A stretch of 64,000 nt of DNA from an uncultured virus (IMG/VR IMGVR_UViG_3300042914_003776) (taxonomy: Duplodnaviria > Heunggongvirae > Uroviricota > Caudoviricetes): positions 1 through 64,000 of the IMG/VR virus record IMGVR_UViG_3300042914_003776; one strand, given 5' to 3'. Shown here in pieces: positions 7,120 through 52,803 of this stretch. A model generated the notes under the pieces. The model saw only the letters and a list, made by a program, of their open reading frames with translations, did not search any database and had not been told where the DNA came from. How positions within the stretch are numbered: position 1 is the first letter of the stretch; each line of letters starts with the position of its first letter. The position numbers and the translations under genes were made by a program.

Positions 7120-7129
7120 AAGATATCCC

Positions 7130-29875: not shown

Positions 29876-29877
29876 AT

Positions 29878-30858
29878 TTATTCCTCTTGAAAGATATCCG
29901 AGTTTGCCCGGGTCATTAGGGCTATAATATTTTGTCCGCTAGAAGTTTCCGATATAAAATGCACAGAGCCATCACATCTTAGGCTCATTATACCACCATT
30001 ATGAAAACTGTAAAGCTCACTATCGTTTGTACAATTCATGTTGCACTGTCCTACTATAGTAACAGCACCACTAGAAGAAGTGCCATTTTGTACGCCAATT
30101 TCGTTAGAACCATCTAAACTAAATCCATTGTTAATATCGGCCCAGCCCCATCCATCTCCAACAAAAGGCGTATTAAAAACTAAACCAGATTTTGGATTCT
30201 GTGATATTCTACTGCCTCTTCCATAGAAACTTGGTCTTCCGGAGCCCTCTGCCACAATTACTGTTTGGCTTGTTCCATCTAGAATCTGGCTCATTTTAAC
30301 GCCTTGAGGCCCTCTTGCAAGAGCACCAAAGACTTCTCTGGTATTTATTGATGGAAGCCCATTAGACACAAAGAATGAGTTTCTAACAGCATTCACGGAA
30401 CCATAATCGCTATAACCAAAAACCGGCTGACCATAAGTAATTCCTAAAGCAACATATAGGCTTTGAAAAGGAACTTCTCTGGTCGCTGGTGCTGTTGGGC
30501 ACAAATATGTAGGGATAGACTTAGTTGTAATTGGGGTATTTAAAGAATCAAACCAATTTACGCCATGATAATAATTGTTATATGCAGATGTTTGTTCAAT
30601 AAAAGGAAGAACCATTTTTTGCCAAGATTGCTGAAAAACCGGAGGCGAAACACTAATCCGGCTTGGCGGAAATAGTTTATATGTACTTTCGTAATTCAAT
30701 AAAGCTAATCCAATTTGCTTTAAGTTGTTGGAACATTGCATTCTGCGGGCTGCTTCTCTGGCTGCTTGAACTGCCGGAAGCAATAATCCCACTAAAACGC
30801 CAATAATTGCAATAACAACTAGAAGTTCAATCAATGTAAAACCATTCTTTTTTTTCAT
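29878..30858 (-). CDS. DUF1559 protein with prepilin-type N-terminal cleavage/methylation motif
   Basis: [47 protein letters not shown]...SFHNGG...DGSVHF. Confidence 0.95.
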
Positions 30859-32295: not shown

Positions 32296-33177
<882 letters not shown>

Positions 33178-33229
33178 AAATTTAAACTACAAACACCACG
33201 AATACATTATAACAATACTACTAGAGATA

Positions 33230-35146
33230 TCAAGATGCAAACTGAATATATTTTGCTAATTCTGAAATTATTTTATCAGAACAGCAACTACCATCATTAA
33301 CAAATGTCAACAATGGATACTTTTCTAGAATTTTTTCTTCTAAAGTATCAATAGGATTTGTCGTAACAGTGACATTTGTATCATACAATTCAATAAACTT
33401 AATAGCATCTTTATTAACAGTTTTGCATAGCTCAACACTTTTAACAAAATCTTTAAACTCTGTAAAAGCATCAGGTAATACATTAGCAAGCCTACAGATT
33501 AGCCCGCTTCTTTCAGAAGAATTTTGGTCTCGTATAGGGTTTGCTTTCTTCAAATCTTCAATCATGCTTTTTAGATACTGATCAAGGCTAATCCAGCTTT
33601 TGTCGTTCAAGAATTCTTTTGAGTGTGCGAACTTAGATTTTATTCCAAATAGTTCAGTACCACTCATAAAGCTACTTGTCATTAATTTTCTTAATCTATA
33701 AAAATTATTGTTAAATTGTCCACTGCTAACAATATCATTATTAAAAATTTCTACATAAATCTTTTGTTTAGCAGGAATACTTGTTGCACTGCATTCAATC
33801 CAAGCTGTTTTTTTGATTGAAGAGTTATTATATCTATAAACATATCCTTTCTTTACAGTCGCAGTAGTATTACTGCGTTCTACTTTTGGTAAAGATGATG
33901 GATCACTAATAAACTGTGGCTCAATTCCTGCCTCCTTGATCTGATCTTCTGTAAAAACAGCAACTCTAGAATTAGTATCACGAACAAGATTTTTAATACG
34001 AGCAGAACAACCTTTAACATATTTAAATAGTTGCGAGTTTAAATTCAGGTGTGATGTATTAGTAGTCTGATAACTAGATACACGACCTCTCGACGACTCA
34101 TAAATTGTAAAAGAAGTCTTTGTATTCTTGAGAGAATATTTATCAGAAAGTTTGTCAATATAGGCATGACCAAACATGTACCTAATACAATAGCCCTTTA
34201 GAATATTTTGTAATGCTAAAGCCTTCTCAAAATTTGTTGTTTTTGATTCAATGATATCTTCTACGTAAGATTTCATATTGTTTTTAATTAGTGCAATTTT
34301 TTCTTTAAGAGCGGCAATAGTCTTCTTGTCCATAGACAAATTTTCTCGCCCGGGATCAAAACTAAGCTCTCCAATATTAAAGTAAAGATTAAAATCAATA
34401 TCTAATCCTTCGCAATACTGGTGAGGAATAGTGTATGCAACATTTCCCATGACTGCATGCTGATAACCACTAATGAAGTTTGCTTTAAACTCCGGCGTAT
34501 CAATAGTATATTTCTTTTTATTATTTAATTTTTCTACTACGCTTGGAATATTGATATTAGGTAGTTTATTAAAAAAAGAATAAACATATTCCGCTTCTTC
34601 GCGGAAACTATCTATAGAGTTATTCTCAACATCTACGCTAATATTTAATCCGTTTGGTTCGTCCGTAGCTACTTCAGAAAGTAGGGCGATCTGAGGCTCA
34701 CCATCTTCAGACTTATAGCAGCTATAGCTACGCTTAAAACCATTGTGATAGCTAACAACAGTAAAACTATCAACTAAGCAAAAAGGAGATTTAGACCCAA
34801 GACCTAATGCTCCAATATAATCATTGGAATTAGTCTTTGTGCTATAGAAATATGTAGTAAATACTTCTCTGATATCTTGGTCAGACAGACCGATACCATA
34901 ATCACGCACCGAGAACCAAGGTTCAATATGGGTAGGAAGATGAACATCGAATAGAGCATCATTGCCCGCTGCAATATGTGCATCGTGTGCGTTGCAGCTA
35001 ATCTCACGAATAACGGCCCGGATTTTATGGGTATAAATATTTGAACTAAGAATTTCGAAAGCCTTAGAGCTTGCCTGAATTTTAAAACCGCTGTTCTTGA
35101 TAGAACCAGACACAATAACATCGCTCTTTGAATCGCCAATAATCAT
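33230..35146 (-). CDS. rIIA-like protein (GHKL ATPase N-domain)
   Basis: AFEILSSNIY, REISCNAHDAH, RDYGIGL, STK, IGALGLGSKSPF; adjacent to rIIB. Confidence 0.88.
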   Translation of the reverse strand: MIIGDSKSDVIVSGSIKNSGFKIQASSKAFEILSSNIYTHKIRAVIREISCNAHDAHIAAGNDALFDVHLPTHIEPWFSVRDYGIGLSDQDIREVFTTYFYSTKTNSNDYIGALGLGSKSPFCLVDSFTVVSYHNGFKRSYSCYKSEDGEPQIALLSEVATDEPNGLNISVDVENNSIDSFREEAEYVYSFFNKLPNINIPSVVEKLNNKKKYTIDTPEFKANFISGYQHAVMGNVAYTIPHQYCEGLDIDFNLYFNIGELSFDPGRENLSMDKKTIAALKEKIALIKNNMKSYVEDIIESKTTNFEKALALQNILKGYCIRYMFGHAYIDKLSDKYSLKNTKTSFTIYESSRGRVSSYQTTNTSHLNLNSQLFKYVKGCSARIKNLVRDTNSRVAVFTEDQIKEAGIEPQFISDPSSLPKVERSNTTATVKKGYVYRYNNSSIKKTAWIECSATSIPAKQKIYVEIFNNDIVSSGQFNNNFYRLRKLMTSSFMSGTELFGIKSKFAHSKEFLNDKSWISLDQYLKSMIEDLKKANPIRDQNSSERSGLICRLANVLPDAFTEFKDFVKSVELCKTVNKDAIKFIELYDTNVTVTTNPIDTLEEKILEKYPLLTFVNDGSCCSDKIISELAKYIQFAS

Positions 35147-35194
35147 TTCTTTTACCTCAATAAGTCAAAAGTAAATACAACAACAATAGTATAA

Positions 35195-35707
35195 CTAGAA
35201 AGTTTCAGAAGTCAAGATGTCAAAAGCTTGTAAAAATTCTTCTTTTGCGTTTTTTGAAAAAAATAACTTTTCAGAAGATTTTGTTCCCCACAAAACTTTT
35301 TTCTCAACTTTGAGAATCTTTCTGTCGTACTTCTTGATTATAGCATTATGTACTTGGAAGTCAAGGTTAAATTTTTTTTCTATTACAGAATTCATTCTAG
35401 ATTCTATATCCAAGTATTCTTTCAGGTGTTTTTTTAGAGGAGATACAATATCACCTAAATAAGCCTCGCTAGCATCATGCATTAACAGTGCAAACAATAC
35501 ATCCCTGCCCGATATTCCATCAAACATAGCCATTTGAACCATGCCCAAGCTATGCTCTGCCACGCTATAGTCTTGCGGTGACTGAGCCCCAAAACGAGAA
35601 ACTCTACTTAATCCATGAGCAATAGTTTGAATAGAAATCATTTCTTCAACAGGATTAATCAAATCAATTTTACTACCATCGCACAAAGTAATACAGCTTT
35701 CGTTCAT
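35195..35707 (-). CDS. HD-domain phosphohydrolase (YfbR-like nucleotidase)
   Basis: IAHGLS..RF, YSVAEHS, LMHDASEAYLGDIVSPLK. Confidence 0.88.
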   Translation of the reverse strand: MNESCITLCDGSKIDLINPVEEMISIQTIAHGLSRVSRFGAQSPQDYSVAEHSLGMVQMAMFDGISGRDVLFALLMHDASEAYLGDIVSPLKKHLKEYLDIESRMNSVIEKKFNLDFQVHNAIIKKYDRKILKVEKKVLWGTKSSEKLFFSKNAKEEFLQAFDILTSETF

Positions 35708-36765
35708 TTTGCACCTAAATATTCATGAGAGTAACAAGTTCTAACGGCATCTATTTCTTTTCTTTTATCTTCTTTTCTAATTTTATCACCTTTTGGAATA
35801 TATAAATAATCCTTTCTGGCTCGGCCATTTTTGCTAGTAGCTTTCCATAGTGGCGATCTATTTCTATACTCGCCCATTCTGGGGTGCGCGGTTTTAGAAA
35901 AATATCTATGTCCGCTATCAGTAAAAAGCTTTGCTATAAAATCAGAAAATCTAACGCCTATACCAAGCCCCTGATAATCTGGCAATACTACTGTTCTATG
36001 TTCTCTCCAAGCATTTTTAACCGTACCACTAGGATAAGCTAAAGCAGAACCAAAAGCAATAGGTTTAGTGTCATATAATCCCAAAAAACACCGGGCAGAT
36101 TTATTTATTTTATCGTCTAAATAATGATGGTGCCTAAAAACTTCCCACCACTCGGTTGTGCAAGAGTAGATTTCGAGTTGTATTTCTGGTCTACTCCGAA
36201 GAGACCTCCTTGAAGTCAAAACTCCTGTTTGTGTGTCAAAAATCCAGTCTGGTTGTAGCCATTCAATAATATCGTAATGACAGGTAGAAAAAACTACACC
36301 TGAAATATTATTTTGTCTAATATATCTTTGTGTGGCATGACAACTACTTTTGGCCACAGTACGATCAATAACACTGGTAAATTCATCTATTGATACATTG
36401 CTATCTAAAATTCTAGCAAGTCTTGCCCGGAATTGTTCTCCATTACTTAATACGTGAAAGGGTCTGCACCATGAAGGAACACTATTTAAACCAACAGCAG
36501 ACAGTTTTTGTTGCTCTACTTGGCTAACAATAGCAAGTTCCGGATTCCAATCGGGATCATTTGTGATGCCATAATAATGTTTTAATAGAGAGGTTTTACC
36601 GCTTCCGCTTGACCCTACAATGAGACCTATTGCCCAAGAATTATCTCTTTTAGGAGCATTAAAATCTGGCAGTTCAAATACGCTATTGCCGTTAAAATTA
36701 TAATCAAATGGTTGAATAGCATTTATTAAATTTTCGTCTAGTTTAACAGAGGTATATAGTTTCAT
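35704..36765 (-). CDS. ABC-type ATPase fused to a GNAT acetyltransferase
   Basis: GSSGSGKT, LSNGEQFRA, IDEFTS; C-terminal HHYL...RTVVLPDYQGLGIG. Confidence 0.85.
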   Translation of the reverse strand: MKLYTSVKLDENLINAIQPFDYNFNGNSVFELPDFNAPKRDNSWAIGLIVGSSGSGKTSLLKHYYGITNDPDWNPELAIVSQVEQQKLSAVGLNSVPSWCRPFHVLSNGEQFRARLARILDSNVSIDEFTSVIDRTVAKSSCHATQRYIRQNNISGVVFSTCHYDIIEWLQPDWIFDTQTGVLTSRRSLRSRPEIQLEIYSCTTEWWEVFRHHHYLDDKINKSARCFLGLYDTKPIAFGSALAYPSGTVKNAWREHRTVVLPDYQGLGIGVRFSDFIAKLFTDSGHRYFSKTAHPRMGEYRNRSPLWKATSKNGRARKDYLYIPKGDKIRKEDKRKEIDAVRTCYSHEYLGAK

Positions 36766-36887
36766 GATTATGTTTCGTCAAAAATTCCAACCAAAGATAT
36801 TCCCAGATTTGATTTCTGGTTTCTGTTCTTATTTGCCCCATGATTTTTGTAGAGACCTGTTTTCTATTTTGATAGCCTACTTGACTT

Positions 36888-37067
36888 CTAACTGTTTTCA
36901 TTTTCGTCTTTAAACTGATCCCAGACTTGGTCCCCGACTTGGTCCCCGACTTGGCTCCAGACTTGGTTCCTGACTTGGCTCTCGACTTGGTTACTGACTT
37001 GGTTCCAGACTTGTTTCGTGGTTTGGTTCCAGACTTGGCTCCTGACTTGGATCTTAACAGTTTTCAT
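36888..37067 (-). CDS. QVxx-repeat mini-protein
   Basis: MKTVKIQVRSQVWNQ...QVWDQFKDENENS. Confidence 0.7.
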   Translation of the reverse strand: MKTVKIQVRSQVWNQTTKQVWNQVSNQVESQVRNQVWSQVGDQVGDQVWDQFKDENENS

Positions 37068-37150
37068 TTCTTGCTCCTGACTTGGTTCCCGACTTGGTCC
37101 CAGACTTGGTCCCCGACTTGGCACCTGATTTCATATTGAATCGGCTTCAT
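37064..37150 (-). CDS. QVxx-repeat mini-protein (28 aa)
   Basis: [32 protein letters not shown]-coupled to the next gene. Confidence 0.5.
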   Translation of the reverse strand: MKPIQYEIRCQVGDQVWDQVGNQVRSKK

Positions 37151-37164
37151 TATACACCCGCATA

Positions 37165-37209
37165 AAAAAAGGTACAGTATATTTTACTATACTGTACCTA
37201 ATTTGTCAA
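37165..37209 (-). promoter_or_regulatory. palindrome/terminator overlapping a sigma70-type promoter
   Basis: GGTACAGTATA-N6-TATACTGTACC plus U-tract; TTGACA-N17-TAAAAT overlaps it. Confidence 0.55.
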
Positions 37210-37223: not shown

Positions 37224-37688
37224 TTAGTCGCGGGCTCGGCGTTCTCGCTCTAGTTCCTTATCATACTCACGCTGATAGGTGCATTCGATGATAAACCCAG
37301 CAGGAACAGTAACGTCTCCATGAGTTGGGTGTAGTACCGTTGTTTCAGAATTACAAACCAGTACTGGACCCTTCAAGGACTCTTCATTCCAAACTGGTGG
37401 TAAATAAACATCTACACCATTTAAAGATTTAAGACAGTGCTTTGCTCCCTCGGTATTACCAACAACAAGCTGGCGATTAACCTCGGAAAGCTTTTCTACT
37501 TTCTTGTAATCCTTTGGAACAGATGCGACAACAGTTAGTGCCAAGTCGCCCTGCCAGATACGATCACGCACAGTTGATGCCTCAGTAAAACGCACTGGGG
37601 TACCGGGCTTAACTGCTTCTTCGTTGTTAAGAACACGCTTCACAAAACTCTGGATTTCTTCAATTGCATTAATAATTGCATTAATCAT
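37224..37688 (-). CDS. conserved partner of DUF6745-like proteins
   Basis: WQGDL, GNTEGAKH, HPTHGDVTVPAG, QREYD...RARD. Confidence 0.7.
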   Translation of the reverse strand: MINAIINAIEEIQSFVKRVLNNEEAVKPGTPVRFTEASTVRDRIWQGDLALTVVASVPKDYKKVEKLSEVNRQLVVGNTEGAKHCLKSLNGVDVYLPPVWNEESLKGPVLVCNSETTVLHPTHGDVTVPAGFIIECTYQREYDKELERERRARD

Positions 37689-37700: not shown

Positions 37701-38591
37701 CTAAGTACGAGCCAAAACATTAAACTTTTCACCACCACCTAGCCAAACTTGAGCGTCTTCACATGTTTCAATGCTATCAGGAACGCCCAGAACAAACATT
37801 CTACCCGTTGGACAAGTTACAACAAGCCGATTGCCATAGTTTTCAGTATTATACAGTGCCTCTTTAGTATTTTCAATATCGTTATGACGATAATCTAAAC
37901 ATTTTGCACCGGATTCCTGTAGATATCTCGCCCAACCAAAACGATTAATCATAATGGCCCGGGCTTCATTATTGTTGGTAGCATTAATTTCCTCTACCGT
38001 CAACGTCTCTGGAGCCATAACAGTCTTTTCATTTAGTCTTACACCATCAATAGCCCAAACCTTGTATCCATCACGATATGCAACGGCTGGACCATTTTCA
38101 TTATGTAAACGAAATTGATCGTCTAAGTGAATCTCTGAATGCTTGTGCTGAAAAATAACACAGGTATCATAAGGAGCCCACCAGCCAACATTCTTGGCAA
38201 TACCAATTAGTCCTTCTAGCTTGCGGCATTCTTCAACACCTAGCTCATTAAGAACATAATCATAATATCCTAGCCAGCCAGCTTCATGACTACCAAAAGT
38301 TTGATTATTTAATTCATCATAAACAGCAGAGCGATATCTCTCAGTATCCGACTCATTGACTTCTCCCTTGAGTTTAACCGCTAGCTTTGCAGCAGCAATC
38401 GGACTATCGGCTAAATAAAAGTTTTCTGGACAAACTAAACCAGCAGCTTCGTATGCAAGCCGGGCATACTTCTTGGCTTCTTCTAGGTTACACTCTCCGC
38501 AGTCAAGGCCAATATCGATCCACTTCTGCCGATACTTTGGCAACAATGCTTCTTGTTCTGGCGTTAGCTTGTCGATAGTCTTCTTACTCAT
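37701..38591 (-). CDS. DUF6745-like protein lacking the internal repeat tract
   Basis: LTPEQEALLPKYRQKWIDIGL, DSP, GSHEAGWLGYYDY, GWWAPY, RLHNENGPAVAYRDG, VTCPTGR. Confidence 0.78.
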   Translation of the reverse strand: MSKKTIDKLTPEQEALLPKYRQKWIDIGLDCGECNLEEAKKYARLAYEAAGLVCPENFYLADSPIAAAKLAVKLKGEVNESDTERYRSAVYDELNNQTFGSHEAGWLGYYDYVLNELGVEECRKLEGLIGIAKNVGWWAPYDTCVIFQHKHSEIHLDDQFRLHNENGPAVAYRDGYKVWAIDGVRLNEKTVMAPETLTVEEINATNNNEARAIMINRFGWARYLQESGAKCLDYRHNDIENTKEALYNTENYGNRLVVTCPTGRMFVLGVPDSIETCEDAQVWLGGGEKFNVLART

Positions 38592-39098: not shown

Positions 39099-39172
39099 TT
39101 TTACCTCAAAAAACAGGGGCCTTTCAGCCCCTATTTAACATCGATGTAACTTTTGTCTACTCCACCAAAAAG

Positions 39173-39880: not shown

Positions 39881-40393
39881 CTATTTTATTTTTCTTCTTT
39901 TAATATTATGAGCTTTTTGAGCACATATTTTATTACAATATTTTTTATCTACCCTAACAGAGCACTCGAAATCGTTGTGACAAATTTCGCATTGTTTTAG
40001 ATGTGTTTTAATTTCTACATTTTTAACATTAGAATCTTCTTCAAAATGAAGTTCTCTATGACAATTAGAACATAATAAATCACATTTATCAAGTTCAATT
40101 TTTGTTTTTTCCCAAGACCTAGTTAGTCCTTTTTTACTTAATCCAAACTCTTTATCAGAAGACTCCCTATGATGAAAATCTAATGCGGCAGAACATTTAT
40201 CATAGCCACATTTTTGACACTTTCCGCCTTTATATTCTAAGGCTAATTGTTTTAATTTTAATCTTCTTCGATGAACAGCGTTGGTGCGACATTTTTTACA
40301 TTTTCTTCTTTCTTTAGGAGTTCCAAAATTTTCTAAAGCAAATTCTGTTTCCCCATGTTGCTTACAAGTCCATATTATTGTTTTTTCTGGCAT
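39881..40393 (-). CDS. HNH endonuclease (free-standing, inside tRNA array)
   Basis: GGKCQKCGY...ALDFHH...KCDLLCSNCHRELH; AGGAG RBS before ATG 40393. Confidence 0.9.
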   Translation of the reverse strand: MPEKTIIWTCKQHGETEFALENFGTPKERRKCKKCRTNAVHRRRLKLKQLALEYKGGKCQKCGYDKCSAALDFHHRESSDKEFGLSKKGLTRSWEKTKIELDKCDLLCSNCHRELHFEEDSNVKNVEIKTHLKQCEICHNDFECSVRVDKKYCNKICAQKAHNIKRRKIK

Positions 40394-40459
40394 ATATAAT
40401 CTCCTATACCTATATATACACAAAATGTATAGGTAGTAAGATTATTTTTATTTTACTAG

Positions 40460-41612: not shown

Positions 41613-41658
41613 ATTAATATTTTTGTGTATATTATATTATACCAACAGGAGATATAAT

Positions 41659-42267
41659 ATGATATTTAAATGTACTTTATGCAATAAAGATTTTGAAAGA
41701 AGCAAAAGAAATGCTTATATGAGCATTAAAAAAAATTGCAAGCCGTTTTGTTCAAAAACATGTTTTAACTCTTTTCAAACAACAAAACAACAAGTTTTGT
41801 GTAAAAATTGCAACAAAGCTTTTTATAAATTATTAAATCAAATCAAACAATCAAAAAATCATTTTTGTTCTAGGTCTTGTTCTGTTACTTATAATAATAA
41901 AAATAAGACAAAAGGAAACAGACGATCTAAACTAGAACAATATATTGAATTAAAACTTTCTGAAATATATCCAAATCTTCAAATATTATACAATAATAAA
42001 GAAGCTATAAAATCTGAATTAGATATCTATATACCATCTTTAAAATTAGCTTTTGAATTAAATGGAATTTTTCATTATGAACCAATTTTTGGTGAAGATA
42101 AATTATCTAACATTCAAAATAACGATAATCGCAAATTTCAAGCTTGTTTAGAACAAAATATAGAACTTTGTATTATCGACACTTCTTCACAAAAATATTT
42201 TAAAGAATCTTCTTCGGAAAAATTTTTAAAAATTATATGTGAAATTATCAACAAAAAAAATAATTAA
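41659..42267 (+). CDS. zinc-finger plus PD-(D/E)XK putative homing endonuclease
   Basis: Repeated CxxC...FCSxxC modules, ELDIYIPSLKLAFELNGIFHY; AGGAG RBS; only clear plus-strand gene. Confidence 0.85.
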   Translation: MIFKCTLCNKDFERSKRNAYMSIKKNCKPFCSKTCFNSFQTTKQQVLCKNCNKAFYKLLNQIKQSKNHFCSRSCSVTYNNKNKTKGNRRSKLEQYIELKLSEIYPNLQILYNNKEAIKSELDIYIPSLKLAFELNGIFHYEPIFGEDKLSNIQNNDNRKFQACLEQNIELCIIDTSSQKYFKESSSEKFLKIICEIINKKNN

Positions 42268-43084: not shown

Positions 43085-43156
43085 CCGGTATTAATGGTAT
43101 CGCACCACTCTCTTATGCTCTTCAGGCATACGCTAATCTATCTCAGCTAAATACCG
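43085..43156 (-). tRNA. tRNA-Phe(GAA)
   Basis: CGGTATT/AATACCG, loop CTGAAGA, T loop TGCGATA. Confidence 0.82.
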
Positions 43157-43926: not shown

Positions 43927-44534
43927 AGTCTATCTCTGTTTTTTCAAATCATTGAAATAAATATATCTGAGAATTCTGTAAAAAATAGTACCCGATGCAT
44001 TACCGCAAACACCAACCCAAGTCTTGTCTATAGCTTTAATACCTATTTTTTTTCTAATTGCTGACTCAATTGTTGCACGAGTATTTAATTTATATATAAC
44101 TGATTTCATTTTCTTTTATCCAACTTTGTATTTGCGATTTAACCCAACCAATCTGGCTCATGGTTTTATCAATTCGTATATCAACATCGCCATTAATATT
44201 ATCCCAAGTTGCTTCGCAAGCCTGTTTGTCAACTTCATTTCTGATTTCGTATATTACTGATGTCATCTTTTATGTAGTCTTTAAATCTATAAAATAGTAA
44301 AGATGGGAAACTTATTTTTTTTATAAAAAGGCTCCAGATAGGATATGATATGTGGCGATGAACGTCAATACCCTGTACGACCTCTCTTTGGAGCTTTTCT
44401 CTAAGTTTCATTGTTCTTAGTCTTTAAAAAATCGTGAATAGCAATAAATGGCAATCTAAACATTATACGGCCATCATAGTCGATAGTCATCCCAAATTCC
44501 CAAACAATTTTTTCTAATTTAAAATTAACAGTTT

Positions 44535-44717
44535 TCATTTTTTGCTTACAACCTGACTCCTAATTCGATCTATGGCTTGTATCCAGACTTGGCTCCAGAC
44601 TTGGTCCCCGACTTGGCTCCAGATTTGGCTCCTGACTTGGATCAAGATTTGGTCCCCGACTTGGCTCCTGACTTGGTTCAAGATTTGGTTCCTGACTTGA
44701 TTTTTGACAATTTTCAT
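44535..44717 (-). CDS. QVxx-repeat mini-protein
   Basis: [16 protein letters not shown]...VVSKK. Confidence 0.75.
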
Positions 44718-44920
44718 TTTTCGTCCCAGACTTGCTCGCAGATTTGGTTCCTGACTTGGTTCCAGACTTGGTTCACGACTTGGTATCCGACTTGGCTCCC
44801 GACTTGGTTCCCGACTTGGTCCCAGACTTGGCTCCAGACTTGGTCCCCGACTTGGCTCCAGATTTGGCTCCTGACTTGGATCAAGACTTGGTCCATGATT
44901 TGATTCTTAGTTGTTTTCAT
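44714..44920 (-). CDS. QVxx-repeat mini-protein
   Basis: [12 protein letters not shown]...[10 protein letters not shown]. Confidence 0.75.
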
Positions 44921-45075
44921 TTCTTGCTCACGATTTGGCTCCCGACTTGGCTCCAGACTTGGCTCCTGACTTGGTTCAAGATTTGGTCCCCGACTTGGCT
45001 CCAGACTTGGCTCCAGACTTGGTATCCGACTTGGCTCACGACTTGGGCCCTGACTTGATTTTTGACAATTTTCAT
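44917..45075 (-). CDS. QVxx-repeat mini-protein (52 aa)
   Basis: [20 protein letters not shown]...QIVSKK. Confidence 0.72.
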
Positions 45076-45302
45076 TTTTCGTCCCAGACTTGCTCCCAGA
45101 TTTGGTTCCTGACTTGGTTCCAGACTTGGTTCACGACTTGGTATCCGACTTGGCTCACGACTTGGGCCCTGATTTGATTCCAGACTTGGTTACTGATTTG
45201 GTTCCTGACTTGGCTCACGACTTGGCTCACGACTTGGTTACTGACTTGGTTCCAGACTTGATTCATAGCTCGATGCCTGACTTGACTGCTGACAGCTTTC
45301 AT
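45072..45302 (-). CDS. QVxx-repeat mini-protein
   Basis: [19 protein letters not shown]...[10 protein letters not shown]. Confidence 0.75.
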
Positions 45303-45481
45303 TTTTCGTCCCAGACTTGGCTCCTGACTTGGAACCTGACTTGGCTCCTGACTTGGTCCCAGACTTGGCTCCTGACTTGGTCCCAGACTTGGTTCCCGAC
45401 TTGGTTCCAGACTTGGTTCCCGACTTGGTTCCTGACTTTGCTCAAGGCTTGGCTCCAGACTTGGTAAATAAGTGATTTCAT
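45299..45481 (-). CDS. QVxx-repeat mini-protein
   Basis: [16 protein letters not shown]...[14 protein letters not shown]. Confidence 0.75.
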
Positions 45482-45648
45482 TTTTCGTGCCTGACTTGCT
45501 TCCAGACTTGGTTCCCGACTTGGTTACTGACTTGGTTCAAGAATTGGTTCCCGACTTGGATCATGACTTGGTATCCGACTTGGCTCACGACTTGGGCCCT
45601 GACTTGATTCATAGCTCGATGCCTGACTTGACTGCTGACAGCTTTCAT
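45478..45648 (-). CDS. QVxx-repeat mini-protein (56 aa)
   Basis: [19 protein letters not shown]...[10 protein letters not shown]. Confidence 0.72.
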
Positions 45649-45851
45649 TTTTCGTCCCAGACTTGGCTCCTGACTTGGAACCTGACTTGGCTCCTGACTT
45701 GGTCCCAGACTTGGCTCCTGACTTGGTTCCCGACTTGGTTCCAGACTTGGTTCCTGAGTTGGTTCAAGAATTGGTTCCCGACTTGGATCATGACTTGGTA
45801 TCCGACTTGGCTCACGACTTGGGCCCTGACTTGATTGTTGACAGCTTTCAT
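45645..45851 (-). CDS. QVxx-repeat mini-protein
   Basis: [15 protein letters not shown]...[14 protein letters not shown]. Confidence 0.75.
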
Positions 45852-46054
45852 TTTTCGTCCCAGACTTGGCTCCTGACTTGGAACCTGACTTGGCTCCTGA
45901 CTTGGTCCCAGACTTGGCTCCTGACTTGGAACCTGACTTGGCTCCTGACTTGGTCCCAGACTTGGCTCCTGACTTGGTCCCAGACTTGGTTCCAGACTTG
46001 GTTCCCGACTTGGTTCCAGACTTGGTTCCTGACTTGATTGTTGACAGCTTTCAT
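45848..46054 (-). CDS. QVxx-repeat mini-protein
   Basis: [15 protein letters not shown]...[14 protein letters not shown]. Confidence 0.75.
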
Positions 46055-46233
46055 TTTTCGTCCTTGACTTGCTCCCAGATTTGGTTCCTGACTTGGTTCC
46101 AGACTTGGTTCACGACTTGGTATCCGACTTGGCTCACGACTTGGGCCCTGATTTGATTCCAGACTTGATTCCATAGCTGATCCAAGACTTGACTCTCGAC
46201 TTGGTTCCTGACTTGGTTATTAACTGGTTTCAT
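46051..46233 (-). CDS. QVxx-repeat mini-protein
   Basis: [15 protein letters not shown]...[10 protein letters not shown]. Confidence 0.75.
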
Positions 46234-46400
46234 TTTTCCTCCAAGATTTGGTCCCTGACTTGATCCTTGACATGGTTCCTGACTTGGTTCCTGACTTGGC
46301 TCCAGACTTGGTCCCCGACTTGGTTCCTGACTTGGCTCCAGACTTGACTATTGACTTTGTCCCTGACTTGCTCCCAGACTTGCTTTTTAACTGTCTTCAT
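46230..46400 (-). CDS. QVxx-repeat mini-protein
   Basis: [11 protein letters not shown]...QILEEK. Confidence 0.75.
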
Positions 46401-46952
46401 TTCCCAACTCTTCAATAAACTTCTCGTACTCAAGCCAAAACTGTTCTATCGCCCACTCTTTAGGCCCGGCGTAAACTTTTAGCAGTCTATATGGCACCTT
46501 AGAGAAAACGCTATATCTTGTTAATCCGTCTTCAAATCTTATGCCTATTTTTGCATCATCTCTTATAAAAAACAAGTCGTTTTCAAATATTTTTAACATT
46601 TTCTTCTACATCACTTTTTAGGCAGCGTAGTATTCTAATACTAAAAGGTCTGGTAACAGCAAAGGTTACATCTAATACTTTTACTTTATAATTACCAAGA
46701 TATTTATAATAAATTGTCTTAGTATTGGTTTCTCTCAGAATATCGATAGATTTCATCACATATATCTCTATAAATCTCAAATTTAAACTCGGAATTGTGG
46801 GTAATCCACTTACCAACGAAGCCGAAGGAAGTAAAAATCAAATTGATCGACGAAATCAAATTGATAAAAAACTCATTTGATGTTTTATTCATCTGTCTAG
46901 ATATTCTTTGTGTGACTGGGTTCATTTAAAGCCTGTGTCCTACGCATAAAAC

Positions 46953-47291
46953 TCATTCATCGCCAAATTCTTTTTTTAATTCTAAATAAAGTTTTTTTCT
47001 TTCTTTCTCTTGTACTTTTTTATATTTCTCTTTAACGACTCTGTCTCGCTCTTCTCGCTTAATCCTCGCCCAATATTCTTTATCTGTTTCTAATCGTTTT
47101 TTAATAAGATAAAAACTAAGAGATTCGTAATCTTTTTCTATGTTGATAGATATCGCACCATCGTCCTTATATTTTTGAAGACGTTCAATAATATCATCAA
47201 TATTGCCATCAAAATCTCCATAATCCAAGTTAGTATATACTGAAATTTCTTTTCTTAAATAATCAGGAATTGATTCTAGTTTCTTAGTCAT
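46953..47291 (-). CDS. hypothetical protein
   Basis: 112 aa; RLETDKEY...YLELKKEF. Confidence 0.6.
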   Translation of the reverse strand: MTKKLESIPDYLRKEISVYTNLDYGDFDGNIDDIIERLQKYKDDGAISINIEKDYESLSFYLIKKRLETDKEYWARIKREERDRVVKEKYKKVQEKERKKLYLELKKEFGDE

Positions 47292-47427
47292 GATTTAGTT
47301 CCTTCTTTAGATTTAGCAAGTTTTATTAGGTCTTTATTTTCTTGAATTAATGCCACTCTTTCTTGAGCATTAGCTTTTCCGCGAGCCTCAATAGCGTCTA
47401 ATAGCATATTAGAGTTCATTTTTCTTC

Positions 47428-48018
47428 CTAGTCAATTGTAGATGGCATATTTTGTAAAATGTTCATTACATCATTTTTTAATTCTTCATTTACTTCTCTG
47501 CCGGTTAAGTATGCAACATAATCAAGACCAAGCTCAAACAGGCCCGGGCTACATGCTGCTGCTCCAAAAACTTGTTGAACTACATTAAATAATTCATATT
47601 CTTTTTTATCCATTATGTAATCTTTTTCTTTGTTAGCTAGTATTTTAACTTCCTCTTTAAGCTTGTCAACCTCTTCCCATGCTTTATTTCGTTGTTCGAT
47701 ACTGATTTTATAAAAAGAATCCCGCATGGATAATCTATTTACAATCATCTCTACAAGCTCAACTGTTCGTGGAATATGCCACTCATCGCCCTCTACCTCA
47801 TGTTTCGGTAAGACCGTAAGAGCTAGCTTTTTAATTGCCTCATCTTCTTCGCACCAGTCCTTGTTGGCTAGCCTGATATCATTCTCTAGTTTTAAAATAG
47901 TCTCATGCTGCCGGGCCGCCTTGTTGGTTAATTCCTCAATTTTACGCATCATCAACTTGACACGCTCATCTTCGTGATTCTTGGCAAATTCCTTCATTTC
48001 AGATATACCAAATAACAT
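47428..48018 (-). CDS. hypothetical coiled-coil protein
   Basis: 196 aa with GAGG RBS. Confidence 0.6.
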   Translation of the reverse strand: MLFGISEMKEFAKNHEDERVKLMMRKIEELTNKAARQHETILKLENDIRLANKDWCEEDEAIKKLALTVLPKHEVEGDEWHIPRTVELVEMIVNRLSMRDSFYKISIEQRNKAWEEVDKLKEEVKILANKEKDYIMDKKEYELFNVVQQVFGAAACSPGLFELGLDYVAYLTGREVNEELKNDVMNILQNMPSTID

Positions 48019-48054
48019 TATTTACCTCTTTAATAAAGCTAATTTTCGTCAAAA

Positions 48055-48155
48055 TGGAAAAGGCTGGATTCGAACCAACATCAGGCCCCGACTTAGGGGC
48101 GAGCCTACCTTTGTCTCTTATTCTGTATATACAGCGTCTTTATCATCACTTTTCC
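48055..48155 (-). ncRNA. tRNA-like RNA with non-canonical core
   Basis: GGAAAAG/CTTTTCC-A acceptor and GTTGG-TTCGAAT-CCAGC T arm; no standard D or anticodon arm. Confidence 0.6.
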
Positions 48156-48157
48156 AG

Positions 48158-48240
48158 TGCAACCAACTGGATTCGAACCAGTATTCAAGTGCGTCCTGCT
48201 TTTGCTCCGCTCTTGCTATTACCAATTATAGGATAGTTGC
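48158..48240 (-). ncRNA. tRNA-like RNA with extended anticodon-position arm
   Basis: GCAACTA/TGGTTGC, D arm CTAT-AATTGGTA-ATAG, T arm ACTGG-TTCGAAT-CCAGT, 30-nt arm CAAGAGCG...CGCACTTG. Confidence 0.7.
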
Positions 48241-48245
48241 ATCAA

Positions 48246-48371
48246 TGGGTCGGGCAGGAATTGCACCTGCTTGCGCTTCGGTCAGTCCGTTGGAGTCGAA
48301 CCAACGCCATTTGGTCTTGCCTTGCGGGAGCCCTAACTGACTCTGCGTGTCACTGTCCACGCCGCCGATCC
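48246..48371 (-). ncRNA. tRNA-like RNA with a nested second acceptor/T-arm module
   Basis: Outer GGATCGG/CCGACCC plus GCAGG-TGCAATT-CCTGC; inner GTCAGT...GTTGG-TTCGACT-CCAAC-GGACTGAC at 48281-48341. Confidence 0.65.
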
Positions 48372-49076
48372 TTATATATTATATACTATTGATCTTTATT
48401 TTCAAGCAAAATACTGTAAAATTCTTCTACCATAATATGTATTCTGTATAACTTTGAGCTTGTGCATTTTTTATTGTTAACTTTATAAGATATAATTCCC
48501 ACATTAATTCCCAAATAGCACCATTATGTGCTTTTAAAAAATAATCAACTTTTATGTTATTTATGTCTTCTATTTTTTCCCTAAATGATATCAAGATGGT
48601 CACTCCAGCCCGAATAAAACCAACAATTAAAGTTTATTTTATCTTCTATATAATCTGACAGACCCCTCTTCTTAGTAAAGATCATGTCGGGCATTAATTT
48701 AAAATGGCTAATTTTTTTCATATTTTAACTACTACAGATAATAACAAAACAGTAATGTGGTATAAAAAATCATTTCTATAATATAGCCCGGGAAATTTAG
48801 GCTTGCCCATGAATGATCTGGGTCTGGATATGTTGTTATAAGGTCACGAACTGATTTCATTTTTTTTGTTTCTTTTTTATTACCCACCGTATCTCAAATA
48901 ACAAATCATCGATCCATTTTATATATAAAGAAAATGTATGCGGTCTGTAATTTCATAGCGAATAAAATTAGGAATCCGTAAATACCAGTCTATATAAGTA
49001 TATGTAAATATGTGCGTTTTGTCAAATATTTTTTCGTTTATTAAATCATAAGTTTTTTGAATTTTTTTTAAAGGCT

Positions 49077-49235
49077 TCATTTTTCTGCTCCGTGTTCATC
49101 CCAGACTTGTCTCACGACTTGGTTACTGACTTGGTTCCAGACTTGGCTTTCGACTTGGCTCCCGACTTGGCTCCTGACTTGGTTCCTGACTTGGCTCCAG
49201 ACTTGCTCCCCGACTTGATTGTTGACAGCTTTCAT
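49077..49235 (-). CDS. QVxx-repeat mini-protein (52 aa)
   Basis: [15 protein letters not shown]...[10 protein letters not shown]. Confidence 0.72.
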
Positions 49236-49438
49236 TTTTCGTTCCAGAATTGGTTCCCGACTTGGATCATGACTTGGTTCAAGACTTGGTTCCTGACTTG
49301 GCTCCAGACTTGGCTCCTGACTTGGTTACTGACTTGGTCCCCGACTTGGTTACTGACTTGGTTCCCGACTTGGTTCCTGACTTGGTTCCTGACTTTGCTC
49401 AAGGCTTGGCTCCAGACTTGGTAAATAAGTGATTTCAT
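49232..49438 (-). CDS. QVxx-repeat mini-protein
   Basis: [16 protein letters not shown]...[14 protein letters not shown]. Confidence 0.75.
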
Positions 49439-49509
49439 TTTTCGTGCCTGACCTGCTTCCAGACTTGGCTCCAGACTTGGTTCCTGACTTGATTGTTGAC
49501 AGCTTTCAT
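49435..49509 (-). CDS. QVxx-repeat mini-protein (24 aa)
   Basis: [24 protein letters not shown]. Confidence 0.65.
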   Translation of the reverse strand: MKAVNNQVRNQVWSQVWKQVRHEK

Positions 49510-49625
49510 TTATCACTCCAGAATTGGTTCCCGACTTGGATCATGACTTGGTTCCTGACTTGGCTCCAGACTTGATTACTGACTTTCCAGACTTGGTTAC
49601 TGACTTGACTGCTAAGAGCTTTCAT
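49506..49625 (-). CDS. QVxx-repeat mini-protein (39 aa)
   Basis: MKALSSQVSNQVWKVSNQV...QFWSDK. Confidence 0.65.
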   Translation of the reverse strand: MKALSSQVSNQVWKVSNQVWSQVRNQVMIQVGNQFWSDK

Positions 49626-49810
49626 TTTTTATTCTTATATTGGTGCAAGACTTGGATATATGCTTCCGTCCAGACTTGGTGCCGAAGTGTGTAGGTTTGA
49701 TTTATATGATTGTACATTTTGCTCCAGATTCGGACACTTATTCGTTCACCAATTTTGTAATTAGTTAATTTTATAATTTTGTACTGTAGTTCAGTTATAA
49801 CATTTTTCAT
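49622..49810 (-). CDS. diverged member of the mini-gene family
   Basis: MKNV start, residual RHQVWTEAYIQV, same ATGA coupling. Confidence 0.55.
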   Translation of the reverse strand: MKNVITELQYKIIKLTNYKIGERISVRIWSKMYNHINQTYTLRHQVWTEAYIQVLHQYKNKK

Positions 49811-50073
49811 TTATTATCCCCATAATATTCTTCTATAAAACCCAAGTTTTCTTCTATAAAACGCAAAATAATATATCCCGGCATATCGTGTGATACATGC
49901 CAACGGGTTTCCCAATAGCTTTTTAGTATTAATTGACGGATTTCTTTAGCTATTTTCATTGTTTAAAATAAGCCTTATTTTACTTATTGGATGACAAATT
50001 TTACGAATTTTTTGAAATATAACAAGATTAATTGACGGGACATATAATTGTATAAGTTTATTTTTTAGAGGTT

Positions 50074-50280
50074 TCATTTTTCGTTCCTGCTTTGTTCCCA
50101 AGCTTGGCTCCAGACTTGGCTCCTGACTTGGCTCCCGACTTGGATCATGACTTGGTTCAAGACTTGGTTCCTGACTTGGCTCCAGACTTGGCTCCTGACT
50201 TGGTCCCCGACTTGGTTACTGACTTGGCTCCCGACTTGGCTCCAGACTTGCTCCCCGACTTGATTGTTGACAGCTTTCAT
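50074..50280 (-). CDS. QVxx-repeat mini-protein
   Basis: [15 protein letters not shown]...[10 protein letters not shown]. Confidence 0.75.
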
Positions 50281-50396
50281 TTTTCGTTCCAGAATTGGTT
50301 CCCGACTTGGATCATGACTTGGCTCCCGACTTGGTTCCAGACTTGGTCCACTTGGTTCATGACTTGGTTCACGATTTGACTCTTAACTGATTTCAT
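50277..50396 (-). CDS. QVxx-repeat mini-protein (39 aa)
   Basis: [22 protein letters not shown]...QFWNEK. Confidence 0.68.
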
Positions 50397-51521
50397 TAGC
50401 TCTAAAACTTATCTCTATAAAATGTATATCAGTATTATATAGCTTTCTACAGCCGGATTGCCGGTAAAAAGAGGAAAAAAGTCTATATTTTGGCCCGGGC
50501 ATTATGTCCATATTGTACATTCTAAAATGTTCAGATAAACTCTTCATAAACATGCTCTTTTAATAAATCGTATCCAAGCGGAGGGTGTGTAACAATTATT
50601 CCTGCCTTTATTTCTGTTGATTCGGGTATAAAGTTCCTAAATAAAAAACTATTTCTGCCCAAAGAAACGGCACAATAATATGTTATTAATTCTGTAACAG
50701 GATTCATATTTCATCCCTTAATATAAATTTTAATAATATACTAAAATCAGTCCTGTAATATAGTAGATCATGTATTTTACGAAATTCACAATAACTTCTT
50801 CCAGTTGACACTTCTCTAATTGATATCGTGGTGCTGAATTTACAAGATTTCATATATTATATTCCAATTGATTATATCTATTTTAGGATAAAAAATTTGA
50901 TTTATATTATCCCTTAAATGCTCTCTAGAGGTTTTATTGTAGGTTTTTGCCCATATCCCATATATTATCCTATCCTGCACGATAACTCTAACACTATTCA
51001 TTATTTGACCTGTTCTTTTATCATCTTTCTTAAAGTAAATAATATATCATCAAGCCACACTACATAAGACACACAACAAATATCTATTTTTTGTTTATAA
51101 TTTAATTTTGGAAATATTTTTTCTTTTAATGTTCTAATTTTTTCTCCCTTTTTCTTTAAAACAGGGCCCGGCTTTCTAGGTTTTCTTTCGTAAAAACTTC
51201 CGTATCTTATGCCATAGATTCTGTAGATTATATATCTATTGTAGTACAGATAGTATCAAAAGGCAAGCTCAATAGAGAAAGAAAGATGAGTTGTTTTTAG
51301 GCTATATAAGATAGCTTATGATTTGACGTAAGTCCTTTAGTACCAATACTATATAATAAAACAGTAATATAGAATATAGTATATAAGAATGAAGTATATA
51401 ATAGAGAGTAATAGAAAAGAATATAGAAGGAAATAAAGAACAAAGAACAACAGTGAAGAATAATATTTATGATAAATTTAAACGTCCTCGGTCGGCAGCA
51501 AGTCGCCTGCCAAAATGGCAG

Positions 51522-52539: not shown

Positions 52540-52803
52540 TATTTTATACCTCTTAGGAGCAATTATAAGCCCAAAACAACAAAAGTCAAGCCTATTTTTT
52601 CAAAAAAGGCCCAAATTTTGCTTATAACGCATTTTTTTAAAATATGACTCAGGAGCCTTGACAACCATAAAAAGTGCGTTAGAATTGAAATATGAAAGTC
52701 AACTGACTGCTCCGTATGGGTCCGCTCTTAATACTAGGAGTTTAACAATTCTGTTTTTTATATAAAGAGAAATTCAACTGACTAATCAGGAATGGGGCGC
52801 TCT

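Follow-up and report, generated by a model that had tools for sequence, protein, structure and literature searches.

In the genome of an uncultured lake phage (about 158 kb, host probably a planctomycete), 18 mini-genes encode peptides with a QV-x-x repeat. Why does a phage carry so many variants of one short repeat, and what do their products act on? These questions were examined in a window comprising the first 64,000 nucleotides of the IMG/VR record IMGVR_UViG_3300042914_003776 and in further viral records.

Mini-gene array

The mini-genes were found in groups of ten (44535-46400), four (49077-49625), two (50074-50396) and two (36888-37150), with products of 24-76 aa. A former interpretation of the letters alone (the sequence-only reading) had reported the same lengths and ten, six and two genes. 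These counts were borne out, except that its six genes at 49077-50396 form two groups around three non-QV coupled ORFs (49622-50077). All mini-genes lie on the minus strand, which had not been stated before. The 4-nt ATGA overlap, also described formerly, was present at all 14 junctions between QV mini-genes.

46230-46400, minus strand, QVxx mini-gene 1 of the main array, 56 aa; 14-nt overlap of its start with the upstream ORF 46387-46599
46051-46233, minus strand, mini-gene 2, main array, 60 aa; peptide used for docking on DUF6745
45848-46054, minus strand, mini-gene 3, main array, 68 aa
45645-45851, minus strand, mini-gene 4, main array, 68 aa
45478-45648, minus strand, mini-gene 5, main array, 56 aa
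45299-45481, minus strand, mini-gene 6, main array, 60 aa
45072-45302, minus strand, mini-gene 7, main array, 76 aa
44917-45075, minus strand, mini-gene 8, main array, 52 aa
44714-44920, minus strand, mini-gene 9, main array, 68 aa
44535-44717, minus strand, mini-gene 10, main array, 60 aa
50277-50396, minus strand, QVxx mini-gene, 39 aa; one 3-nt deletion
50074-50280, minus strand, QVxx mini-gene, 68 aa
49506-49625, minus strand, QVxx mini-gene, 39 aa; one 3-nt deletion
49435-49509, minus strand, QVxx mini-gene, 24 aa
49232-49438, minus strand, QVxx mini-gene, 68 aa
49077-49235, minus strand, QVxx mini-gene, 52 aa
37064-37150, minus strand, QVxx mini-gene, 28 aa; immediately follows the DUF6745 partner gene
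36888-37067, minus strand, QVxx mini-gene, 59 aa
48919-51001, minus strand, uninterrupted series of 14 overlapping micro-ORFs (24-68 aa), six of them QV genes; each junction overlaps by 4-17 nt

The repeat pattern exceeds chance. In the complete record, CARGT-N4-RRN-CARGT gave 116 matches on one strand and none on the other, the reversed control 0 and 1. Free mini-genes were detected in at least 35 unrelated viral contigs, and 4,231 representative proteins matched the mini-protein repeat profile at E <= 0.001. Nine scanned mini-proteins matched neither PF20530 nor any other family above its cut-off.

At least three degenerate members (36743-36901, 49622-49810 and 44090-44266) are located at the array edges, the last with a head like that of its ortholog in the relative L278. 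Near-consensus sigma70 promoters are found along the genome arm bearing the mini-genes; at a loose setting, 47 consensus matches were counted, versus 36.5 +/- 7.2 in shuffles.

44090-44266, minus strand, degenerate member, 58 aa; E 0.0028 with the mini-gene profile (881 small ORFs searched)
43930-44109, minus strand, possible degenerate member, 59 aa; head of the family type, hydrophobic pattern with period 4 at p 0.03 (uncorrected), no significant profile score
49622-49810, minus strand, degenerate member, 62 aa; profile E 4e-5, period-4 p 0.008
36743-36901, minus strand, degenerate member, 52 aa; profile E 2e-8
50840-51001, minus strand, candidate degenerate member; period-4 p 0.002, profile E 0.79
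37181-37209, minus strand, sigma70-like promoter TTGACA-N17-TAAAAT ahead of the small cluster (consensus match only); retained in L278, with the -10 box inside the loop of a terminator-like hairpin (37171-37198)
52562-52589, minus strand, sigma70-like promoter preceding the micro-ORF chain at 51.0-48.9 kb (consensus match only)
starting at 49025, 48405 and 47669, minus strand, further sigma70-like promoters upstream of the main array (consensus matches only)

Coding and diversification

The QV frame is kept open. Counted by repeat unit, independently of ORF calls, stops in this frame occurred in 0 of 118 units of the window and 1 of 998 units of other arrays, and in the other five frames in 1-42 and 9-811 units, respectively. 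Off-frame unit spacing was detected in none of 103 window and 624 fused cases. The sequence-only reading had pointed out that length steps keep the frame. This is correct, but steps of 12 nt do so automatically and thus give no evidence of selection on their own.

Amino acid variation is concentrated at the third and fourth positions of the unit. In the window, piS was 0.141 and piN was 0.025 for Q, 0.13 for V, 0.457 for x3 and 0.388 for x4; the base entropy of the 12-bp unit peaked at bases 7, 8, 10 and 11 (1.58, 0.96, 0.92 and 1.37). The piN of x3 and x4 exceeded piS in 26 of 27 mini-gene arrays and in all 24 fused tracts, some of these groups being near-identical phages and the unit pairs not being independent. 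With silent sites taken from codons 3-4 only, the excess was smaller (window ratio 1.55; above 1 in 21 of 27 groups). Between the mini-gene 37064-37150 and its positional ortholog in the 94%-identical relative L278, 18 nonsynonymous and 1 synonymous differences were counted over 28 codons, compared with 8 and 38 for the partner gene and 16 and 59 for DUF6745. Q and V codons differ only silently between genomes. The lack of stops, the near-fixed Q and V and the excess of amino acid over silent change at x-x indicate protein-level selection on the tracts. Judged from these patterns, the mini-genes are very probably coding and diversifying.

Mosaics and recombination

Heads and tails are reused, as the sequence-only reading had noticed: the head MKSLIY.. 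occurs in two mini-genes, each with another tail, the head MKAVSS.. twice, one 14-residue tail three times and one 11-residue piece three times. Exact common blocks of at least 36 nt were found in 28 pairs (mean 4.2, maximum 13, in 200 unit shuffles), the longest with 127 nt (mean 48). Eight of the 28 blocks cross a junction; hence the exchanged unit is often a tail, the junction and the head of the next gene.

These mosaics appear compatible with ordinary recombination; a RecA-like gene is located 40 kb from the array. The tyrosine integrase PF00589 was absent from all five searched records, the complete one included (control 14/14), and the reverse transcriptase PF00078 likewise from five including the complete G001 (control positive 3/14). 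A Pfam scan of the flanking ORFs gave no recombinase family. The long contig pieces listed from four other lake studies differed at 0-2 positions and contained no convincing rearrangement. Thus, of the proposed recombination-driven cassette, the diversified repertoire of translated peptides made by recombination is retained, as indicated by block sharing, open frames and the L278 comparison. The dedicated or active shuffling is not, and the check for shuffling in the population, suggested at that time, gave nothing in its favour.

Two candidate mechanisms were rejected for the records searched. A diversity-generating retroelement (DGR) does not fit the missing reverse transcriptase, the lack of an all-adenine template unit in the 117-kb record G000 and the invariant CAA adenines (CAA kept in 113 of 118 units). 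A shufflon or integron cassette does not fit the lack of PF00589 and of a Pfam recombinase among the flanking ORFs.

The array could also be a selfish or neutral minisatellite growing by slippage, with ORFs as tolerated by-products that pass ribosomes along the operon. Slippage by 12 bp keeps the frame without selection, and rare codons are fixed: GTC accounts for 9% of the Val codons genome-wide and for 102 of 102 in the array, which implies strong homogenisation. Neutral homogenisation is, however, not expected to leave nonsynonymous above silent diversity or exclusively silent Q and V differences; stops are missing, yet CAA and TGG would need only one step to become stops, and the same codons do show amino acid changes. 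We consider this explanation very unlikely. Even less probable, and largely refuted, are readings of the repeat as a functional nucleic acid (DNA or RNA: binding sites, origin or structured RNA), as a DGR target or as an assembly artefact. In their favour, codon positions 1-2 vary and position 3 is fixed (NNG, NNC), and C is rare at the variable bases, both of which resemble DGR output; also, the complete record is opened at a 127-bp repeat inside the array, which leaves the number of copies of one 346-bp block unproven. Beside the findings against a DGR given above, an RNA fold z of +0.62, the sharing of the design by dozens of unrelated contigs and the identity of two records of the same phage over 18,019 + 1,046 + 832 + 665 bases argue against them.

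Relation to DUF6745

A DUF6745 gene is located 550 bp upstream of the small mini-gene cluster, a link absent from the sequence-only reading.

37701-38591, minus strand, DUF6745 protein and proposed docking core, 296 aa, without internal repeat tract; PF20530 E 5.3e-29, 101 bits (cut-off 27)
37224-37688, minus strand, DUF6745 partner gene, 154 aa; motif pattern QGD..H..H..QREY read from sequences

The predicted structure of the DUF6745 protein has a pLDDT of 94.8, and alignment with tract-bearing forms confirmed that the tract is absent. No Pfam or PHROG match was obtained for the partner gene; partner-like genes adjoin DUF6745 in most loci seen. The remaining 16 of the 18 mini-genes are 6-12 kb away, with a tRNA cluster in between.

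In 30 viral loci the QV-x-x repeat lies in frame inside DUF6745, and 145 of 150 best matches of the mini-protein profile carry DUF6745 body sequence. In cis, the fused tract is predicted with a pLDDT below 50. Of 41 mini-gene records, 18 have an identifiable DUF6745; these amount to 15 distinct proteins, none of which contains a repeat. The 23 other records, without DUF6745, are mostly fragments of 2-40% completeness. Among the mini-gene records at least 90% complete, four of five possess tract-less DUF6745, compared with 0 of 15 unrelated repeat-bearing records (two misfiled fused forms left out). Two of 39 fused-form records match the mini-gene start pattern, both inside the DUF6745 gene. 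Many DUF6745 proteins are without any tract. The relatives L279 and L280 (67-68% identity) have a tract-less DUF6745 and no mini-genes within 16.5 and 11.9 kb, respectively, and the loci L134, L135, L144 and L147 none within 1.5 kb. The mini-genes are best explained as the internal tract of DUF6745, split off and multiplied.

Mini-protein 2, modelled in complex with the tract-less DUF6745, scored 0.65, the best of three controls 0.01. Of 157 solved pairs 116 attained the docking mark, and of 215 mismatched pairs 2, a calibration that holds only roughly for one of 18 peptides with self-made alignments. The runs agreed in at least 65% of contacts, with a partner pLDDT of at least 63. Contacts were made by Q in 13, V in 13, x3 in 10 and x4 in 3 of 13 units. 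In the model, binding occurs via the short head and the Q/V face, the fourth position being mostly off the core; owing to its 10 contacts, x3 is not simply a free outward face. Taken from this model, the mini-protein probably binds DUF6745 in trans. With tracts detached and one of them modelled as docking on a repeat-less DUF6745, one core may take many interchangeable inserts. The tract-less cores and the docking model favour the "interchangeable subunits" among the formerly suggested functions.

Proposed explanation

The best overall explanation, with a probability of roughly 50%, is that detached tract genes are loaded on one DUF6745 core in a conflict with the host. The mini-genes would be early genes, translated as coupled chains, and slippage by 12-bp units together with general homologous recombination or gene conversion would produce the mosaics. 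The core and its small partner protein could be loaded with any of about 18-21 inserts, so that a mixed surface population would face a host target that changes, an anti-phage defence protein being the likeliest candidate. A further-reaching, tentative and rather doubtful generalisation is a plug-in variable surface in large lytic phages, in which core and partner take about 20 recombining, positively selected peptides in trans. The fixed head and Q/V face would attach to the core, with the target set by the variable residues; each infection would thereby bring with it a set of variants prepared for diverse host defence proteins, and neither reverse transcriptase nor site-specific recombinase would be needed. 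In this reading, ageing edge copies may drift into new small genes.

The peptides could instead be made and diversified independently of DUF6745, as tract-derived decoys, inhibitors or sponges of host proteins. Most of the genes are distant from DUF6745, within long chains of other micro-ORFs, degenerate members without the Q/V pattern retain open frames of 52-62 aa, and one record (G024, 92% complete) has repeat genes and no match to the DUF6745 body. Furthermore, the mycobacteriophage Tweety gp54 is a case of such tracts working with other flanking domains. Against independence stand the tract-less DUF6745 of near-complete mini-gene records and the conservation of exactly the parts modelled on DUF6745, Q/V face and head; we regard it as fairly unlikely. 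Less credible still is a structural or solubility accessory of DUF6745 (spacer, oligomer or condensate seed, chaperone-like coat) without any race with the host; the associated idea that the mixture of W/R/G and N/D/S is selected for physical reasons, e.g. avoiding aggregation, is equally hard to credit. The order of x3 and x4 is random and their composition even from N to C (|z| <= 1.7, lags 1-6, 105 proteins), a small set of residues is found again and again in unrelated phages, and tract lengths cluster at 50-79 aa (81 of 105), all in favour of an accessory. It needs, however, no 18 different genes, close relatives differ almost only nonsynonymously, and DUF6745 proteins often manage without a tract.

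Loading of detached tracts on the DUF6745 core, if true, would mean that a protein surface can be varied in trans, by exchange of peptide inserts. Most small early genes of large phages lack an explanation; for one widespread set there is now a candidate partner, a binding model open to testing and a clear selection signature. The finding is also a handle on DUF6745, a family without literature or solved fold relative.

Comparison with known systems

DGRs, shufflons and silent-cassette antigenic variation rely on a variant library for a single protein segment, with change at set positions. The mini-genes resemble them in being such a library with amino acid change at set positions. Unlike in DGRs and shufflons, reverse transcriptase, template repeat and tyrosine recombinase are all missing from the searched records; unlike in silent-cassette systems, each copy has its own start and stop and none resembles a silent donor.

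Tract-bearing DUF6745 proteins (PF20530; phrog_31813), e.g. gp38 of prophage prophiGD102-1 with QL-x-x and those of L002, L005, L013 and L065 with QV-x-x, share the repeat Q-V/L-x-x with x3 mostly W/R/G and x4 D/N/S, and the 12-bp unit with bases 1-6, 9 and 12 near-fixed. In contrast to these, the tracts are present here as at least 18 separate genes, each with a head and tail of its own and joined by coupled junctions, and the core is tract-less. Core and partner adjoin in a cultured phage, too, as the tract-less gp174 and gp175 of the Microcystis phage Ma-LMM01; gp174 has no QV tract, and no small repeat gene was found among 13 annotated features in 8.6 kb. In the literature searched, no paper described the split mini-gene/DUF6745 arrangement or named DUF6745. 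The former statement that no such system is described thus holds for the split arrangement, but the type of repeat and its mutation pattern have been published for Tweety gp54.

This protein (Che8 gp57, PMC gp51), a tunable counter-defence against Phrann gp29/gp30, is the closest studied one. Its 12-bp unit varies at bases 7, 8, 10 and 11, a pattern that the authors of PMC2884959 ascribe to selection for variation; we recomputed entropies of 1.14, 0.47, 0.73 and 0.87 for these bases. Both systems have the 12-bp unit with the first two residues and the third codon positions fixed. Tweety gp54 is a single protein in which unique N- and C-terminal regions flank AA-x-x, whereas the QV-x-x mini-genes are free-standing. 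It was rejected as a DUF6745 homologue (profile probability 0.1%), and a role of the mini-genes in counter-defence or another host conflict, for which the odds seem balanced, is therefore an analogy. The repeat number of gp54 varies, and mutants escaping from Phrann gp29/gp30 were altered in repeat number within this one protein (PMC9262239). Tweety tunes one gene by mutation; the present phage would hold many settings simultaneously. If tract and core are freely mixable, it becomes testable how tetrapeptide tracts of the Tweety type tune counter-defence.

Organization of the mini-gene arrays

The following elements of the phage are referred to by name:
37224-37688, minus strand, open reading frame (ORF) of 154 aa (partner)
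37701-38591, minus strand, DUF6745 protein without repeat tract (core)
44535-46400, minus strand, main array of mini-genes with Q-V-x3-x4 repeats (QV genes)

A library of about 18 coupled mini-genes, assembled from reused heads and tails, had been proposed by the sequence-only reading. The 18 QV genes could be confirmed on the minus strand in groups of 10, 4, 2 and 2, coding for 24-76 aa each. Coupling by ATGA was found at every junction between QV genes (4-nt overlap, 14/14), and 15 of the 18 gene lengths are separated by whole 12-nt units. The reuse of pieces was also borne out: QV genes have 28 exact blocks in common, each 36 nt or longer, compared with a mean of 4.2 (maximum 13) after the units were redealt. 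Eight of these blocks cross a gene junction, and the tail of a gene usually foretells the head of the next one. This pattern is as expected of crossovers within the repeat bodies, whereby tail, junction and next head travel as one.

Among 881 small ORFs, the family profile also matched ORFs at the array edges, 36743-36901 (E 2e-8), 49622-49810 (E 4e-5) and 44090-44266 (E 0.003). The six QV genes at 49-50 kb are part of a run of 14 micro-ORFs, each overlapping the next. In 105 mini-proteins of other phages (median length 62 aa) the order of the residues at x3 and x4 was random, with no positional code. No signal of RNA structure was obtained for the repeat (fold z +0.62). Nine mini-proteins gave no match above cut-off in Pfam and weak matches only in PHROGs, NCBIfam and PADLOC. 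The search of the ESM Atlas yielded 30 matches, all of them unnamed viral clusters, with a recognition score below the bar.

Relation of the repeats to DUF6745 proteins

Immediately upstream of the two-gene cluster lie the DUF6745 gene (PF20530, E 5e-29) and its partner. The mini-protein profile matched 4,231 representatives (E <= 0.001), and DUF6745 proteins make up 145 of its 150 best matches. In fused forms, which hold the tetrapeptide tract inside the DUF6745 protein, the tract is inserted between the conserved SP hinge and the G-x-H-x-A-x-W motif; the DUF6745 of the present phage has about 38 ordinary residues at this site. At least 129 stretches of IMG/VR matched the DNA pattern. Among the matches listed, at least 30 loci carry the tract within a DUF6745 ORF and at least 41 carry free mini-genes (counted without the own record and four doubtful loci, some contigs having several loci); the remaining matches are unrelated or cut repeats.

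The search covered 41 of 42 mini-gene records; DUF6745 was found in 18 of them and in four of the five near-complete ones, including the present phage. The 15 distinct DUF6745 proteins from these 18 records are all without repeat. The start pattern of mini-genes, which is blind to heads not starting with ATGAA, occurred in 2 of 39 fused-form records, both times within the DUF6745 gene. In a small control set with unrelated repeats, covering 17 of 34 records, DUF6745 was present in 2/17, both of them fused forms. Two cases count against an either/or pattern. The relatives L279 and L280 possess a tract-less core and no mini-gene within the DNA searched, and the virus record G024 (92% complete, terminating within a tract) has repeat genes yet no core match.

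For bacterial and archaeal genomes, at least 120 pattern loci were listed, comprising three fused DUF6745, one spurious mini-gene call and 116 other repeats. Cultured phages with arrays were not detected by tblastn, a search weakened by the low-complexity filter; the sole blastn match, Gordonia phage Lilbeanie, was spurious, and the same filter weakens that search. Apart from the IMG/VR record of this phage itself, the close relatives found were three partial metagenome contigs, none spanning the main array. The detached-tract arrays are part of a widespread module, undescribed in the literature covered.

DUF6745 tracts of the SV-x-x and QL-x-x type, with unchanged variable positions, were observed in the proteins P0054, P0072, P0076, P0089 and P0096 and at locus L277. 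Near-complete mini-gene carriers have genomes of 80-197 kb, and the fused-form carriers listed as at least 90% complete 38-75 kb. Judging by these sizes, the split form may be tied to large genomes.

Selection on the repeat units

Repeat units were chosen through flanking DNA anchors, independent of ORFs. The own IMG/VR loci (L106-108, L130) and the doubtful calls L039, L057, L076 and L097 were excluded from the counts, and groups of less than 12 units additionally from the diversity comparison. Stops in the QV frame amounted to 0/118 in the window, 1/998 in other arrays and 1/639 in fused tracts, and stops in the other five frames to 1-42, 9-811 and 0-326, respectively. Off-frame spacings amounted to 0/103, 14/862 and 0/624 in the same three sets; 8 of the 14 in other arrays, those printed, are gene junctions.

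The codons for Q and V are nearly fixed within a genome, including GTC, which is rare (9% of the Val codons of the whole genome). Their silent differences between genomes (CAA/CAG; GTC/GTT/GTG/GTA) place the constraint on the protein. Nonsynonymous diversity in the window was 0.457 at x3 and 0.388 at x4, compared with a silent diversity of 0.141 for all codons and 0.272 for codons 3-4. An excess at x3/x4 was determined for 26/27 mini-gene groups and 24/24 fused tracts, or 21/27 and 22/24 with the stricter silent measure; as units share descent, these ratios are descriptive and carry no test statistics. The first mini-gene was compared ungapped with its positional ortholog behind the same promoter in L278, the relative with 94% DUF6745 identity, whose contig stops inside the gene; 18 nonsynonymous and 1 silent codon differences of 28 were counted. 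Core and partner differ mainly silently from the same relative. Judged from these sequence patterns, the mini-genes are protein-coding and positively diversified.

Predicted structure and docking

The model of DUF6745 is confident (pLDDT 94.8). No match in the PDB was obtained at E <= 0.001, which is no proof of a new fold; the best VIA Z was 4.8, for the C-terminal sheet only, and the search of BFVD gave nothing but DUF6745-like proteins. The tract in a fused form was predicted as largely helical with pLDDT <50.

For the predicted complex of DUF6745 with the mini-protein 46051-46233 a score of 0.65 was calculated, and 0.01 for the best of three controls. The docking mark is reached by 116/157 solved complexes and 2/215 mismatched pairs. 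Docking runs concur in at least 65% of contacts, with a partner pLDDT of at least 63. No similar complex came up in PDB searches, and therefore the predictor is unlikely to have reproduced one that it had learned. In the best-defined modelled contacts, the first eight residues of the peptide (1-8, its head) rest on positions 46-52, 96 and 139-142 of the core, and position 96 lies where fused forms insert their tract. All Q and all V contact the core in the model; of the 13 units, 10 do so with x3 and 3 with x4. This pattern matches the selection for Q/V and x4, and less well for x3. The modelling supports a putative binding of the mini-protein to DUF6745 in trans.

Genome setting

The window comprises bases 1-64000 of a virus record of 117,750 bp. 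A complete (100%) record in IMG/VR, 158,520 bp long with direct terminal repeats, shows 0 differences to the window over 18,019 + 1,046 + 832 + 665 bases, spanning all QV genes, whereby both assemblies may share one sample. Runs with this stretch come from metagenomes of lakes and freshwater; no RNA data set is listed among them, which argues neither for nor against expression. A planctomycete host is probable, because the genes of the phage include one for a DUF1559 prepilin-type protein and two for DUF1501 proteins, families typical of planctomycetes. These genes lie with SNase-like and trypsin-like proteins in a host-type region (26834-30858, minus strand); a prepilin-type gene is also present in L279.

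The phage possesses rIIA, rIIB and a RecA-like gene. About 35 near-consensus sigma70 promoters were located in one orientation between 22 and 71 kb, and therefore the arrays probably belong to the early arm of the genome. At 52.5-71 kb (minus strand) more than 20 near-perfect TTGACA-N16/17-TATAAT promoters follow in succession, many of them bearing a spacer motif like CGATA, and one or two small ORFs lie behind each. At 37164-37209 (minus strand) a promoter-like site, conserved in L278, has its -10 box in a hairpin loop; the 10-bp hairpin resembles a terminator, with seven T behind it. Behind the small mini-gene cluster, the stretch 32296-36765 (minus strand) codes for rIIB, rIIA, an HD-type phosphatase and a fusion of ABC-ATPase and GNAT; the last degenerate mini-gene runs 23 nt into the start of the ATPase/GNAT gene.

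In the window 22 tRNA genes were found with ARAGORN; a further Rfam tRNA (43085-43156, minus strand, 46.6 bits) is absent from that list. The otherwise non-coding stretch 48054-48360 (minus strand) contains three tRNA T-loop-like motifs, called neither by ARAGORN nor by Rfam at gathering score; contigs from other organisms align here and omit about 72 bases (48271-48345). Possibly these are degenerate or intron-bearing tRNA genes. The tRNA cluster includes two Cys-rich, endonuclease-looking ORFs (39881-40423, minus strand; 41623-42267, plus strand), with zf-FCS as the only match, for one of them. The PhoH gene (5428-7179, minus strand) has a LAGLIDADG insert, probably an intein. In three relatives a TROVE/vWA (Ro60-like) gene lies just upstream of an A1S_2505-family gene and DUF6745 (L278:756-2141, L279:5562-6950, L280:7488-8876); it is absent from the equivalent place in the window (about 39100-39170).

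Proposed mechanism and comparison with known systems

The coupled peptides are most likely plug-in inserts of one DUF6745 core, as suggested by sequence and model. They would be made early and translated as coupled chains, giving back in trans what fused forms hold in cis; with inserts supplied in trans, the phage could deploy many variants simultaneously. Their diversity may stem from point changes retained at x-x, slippage and general recombination. Concerning dedicated machinery, neither a reverse transcriptase nor a tyrosine recombinase was found in the five records (0/5 each), and no template unit of a diversity-generating retroelement was found in the record of the phage.

Active shuffling in populations, as implied by the idea of a recombination-driven cassette, was not recovered. 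Contigs from four other lake studies have the same sequence without convincing rearrangement, as seen in Logan contigs from 4 of 24 listed runs, which break at repeats and lose rare variants. Three within-array joints, each from a single low-depth contig whose shorter side measures 33-53 letters, fit repeat mis-placement; the four variant letters seen at 50192-50207 are the misplaced 36.9 kb cluster. Two loose ends with QV-type units, absent from the present genome, occurred in 2-3 runs and probably belong to other phages. Given the same sequence in the other studies, array turnover appears to act between lineages and not as a switch.

On account of the selection pattern and of mycobacteriophage Tweety gp54, we infer a counter-defence role by analogy. 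The boldest reading, one DUF6745 core loaded in trans with many interchangeable diversified peptides against host defences, is tentative, with a probability of about 0.3.

The system had been regarded as unlike any described one. This holds for the DUF6745 split array, since searches on DUF6745/PF20530, Ma-LMM01 gp174 and tetrapeptide-repeat small genes gave no description in the literature covered, most subscription journals lying outside it. It does not hold for the 12-bp variation pattern, which is in print for gp54. Bases 1-6, 9 and 12 of the gp54 unit are described as invariant and 7, 8, 10 and 11 variable (PMC2884959); the variable positions were confirmed by recomputing from the Tweety genome. 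Escape mutants against Phrann gp29/gp30 alter the repeat number of gp54, as stated in a review (PMC9262239). Gp54 is not a DUF6745 protein, and the mini-gene system resembles it by analogy, outside its family. The detached-tract system is a further variation on the tetrapeptide-tract theme.
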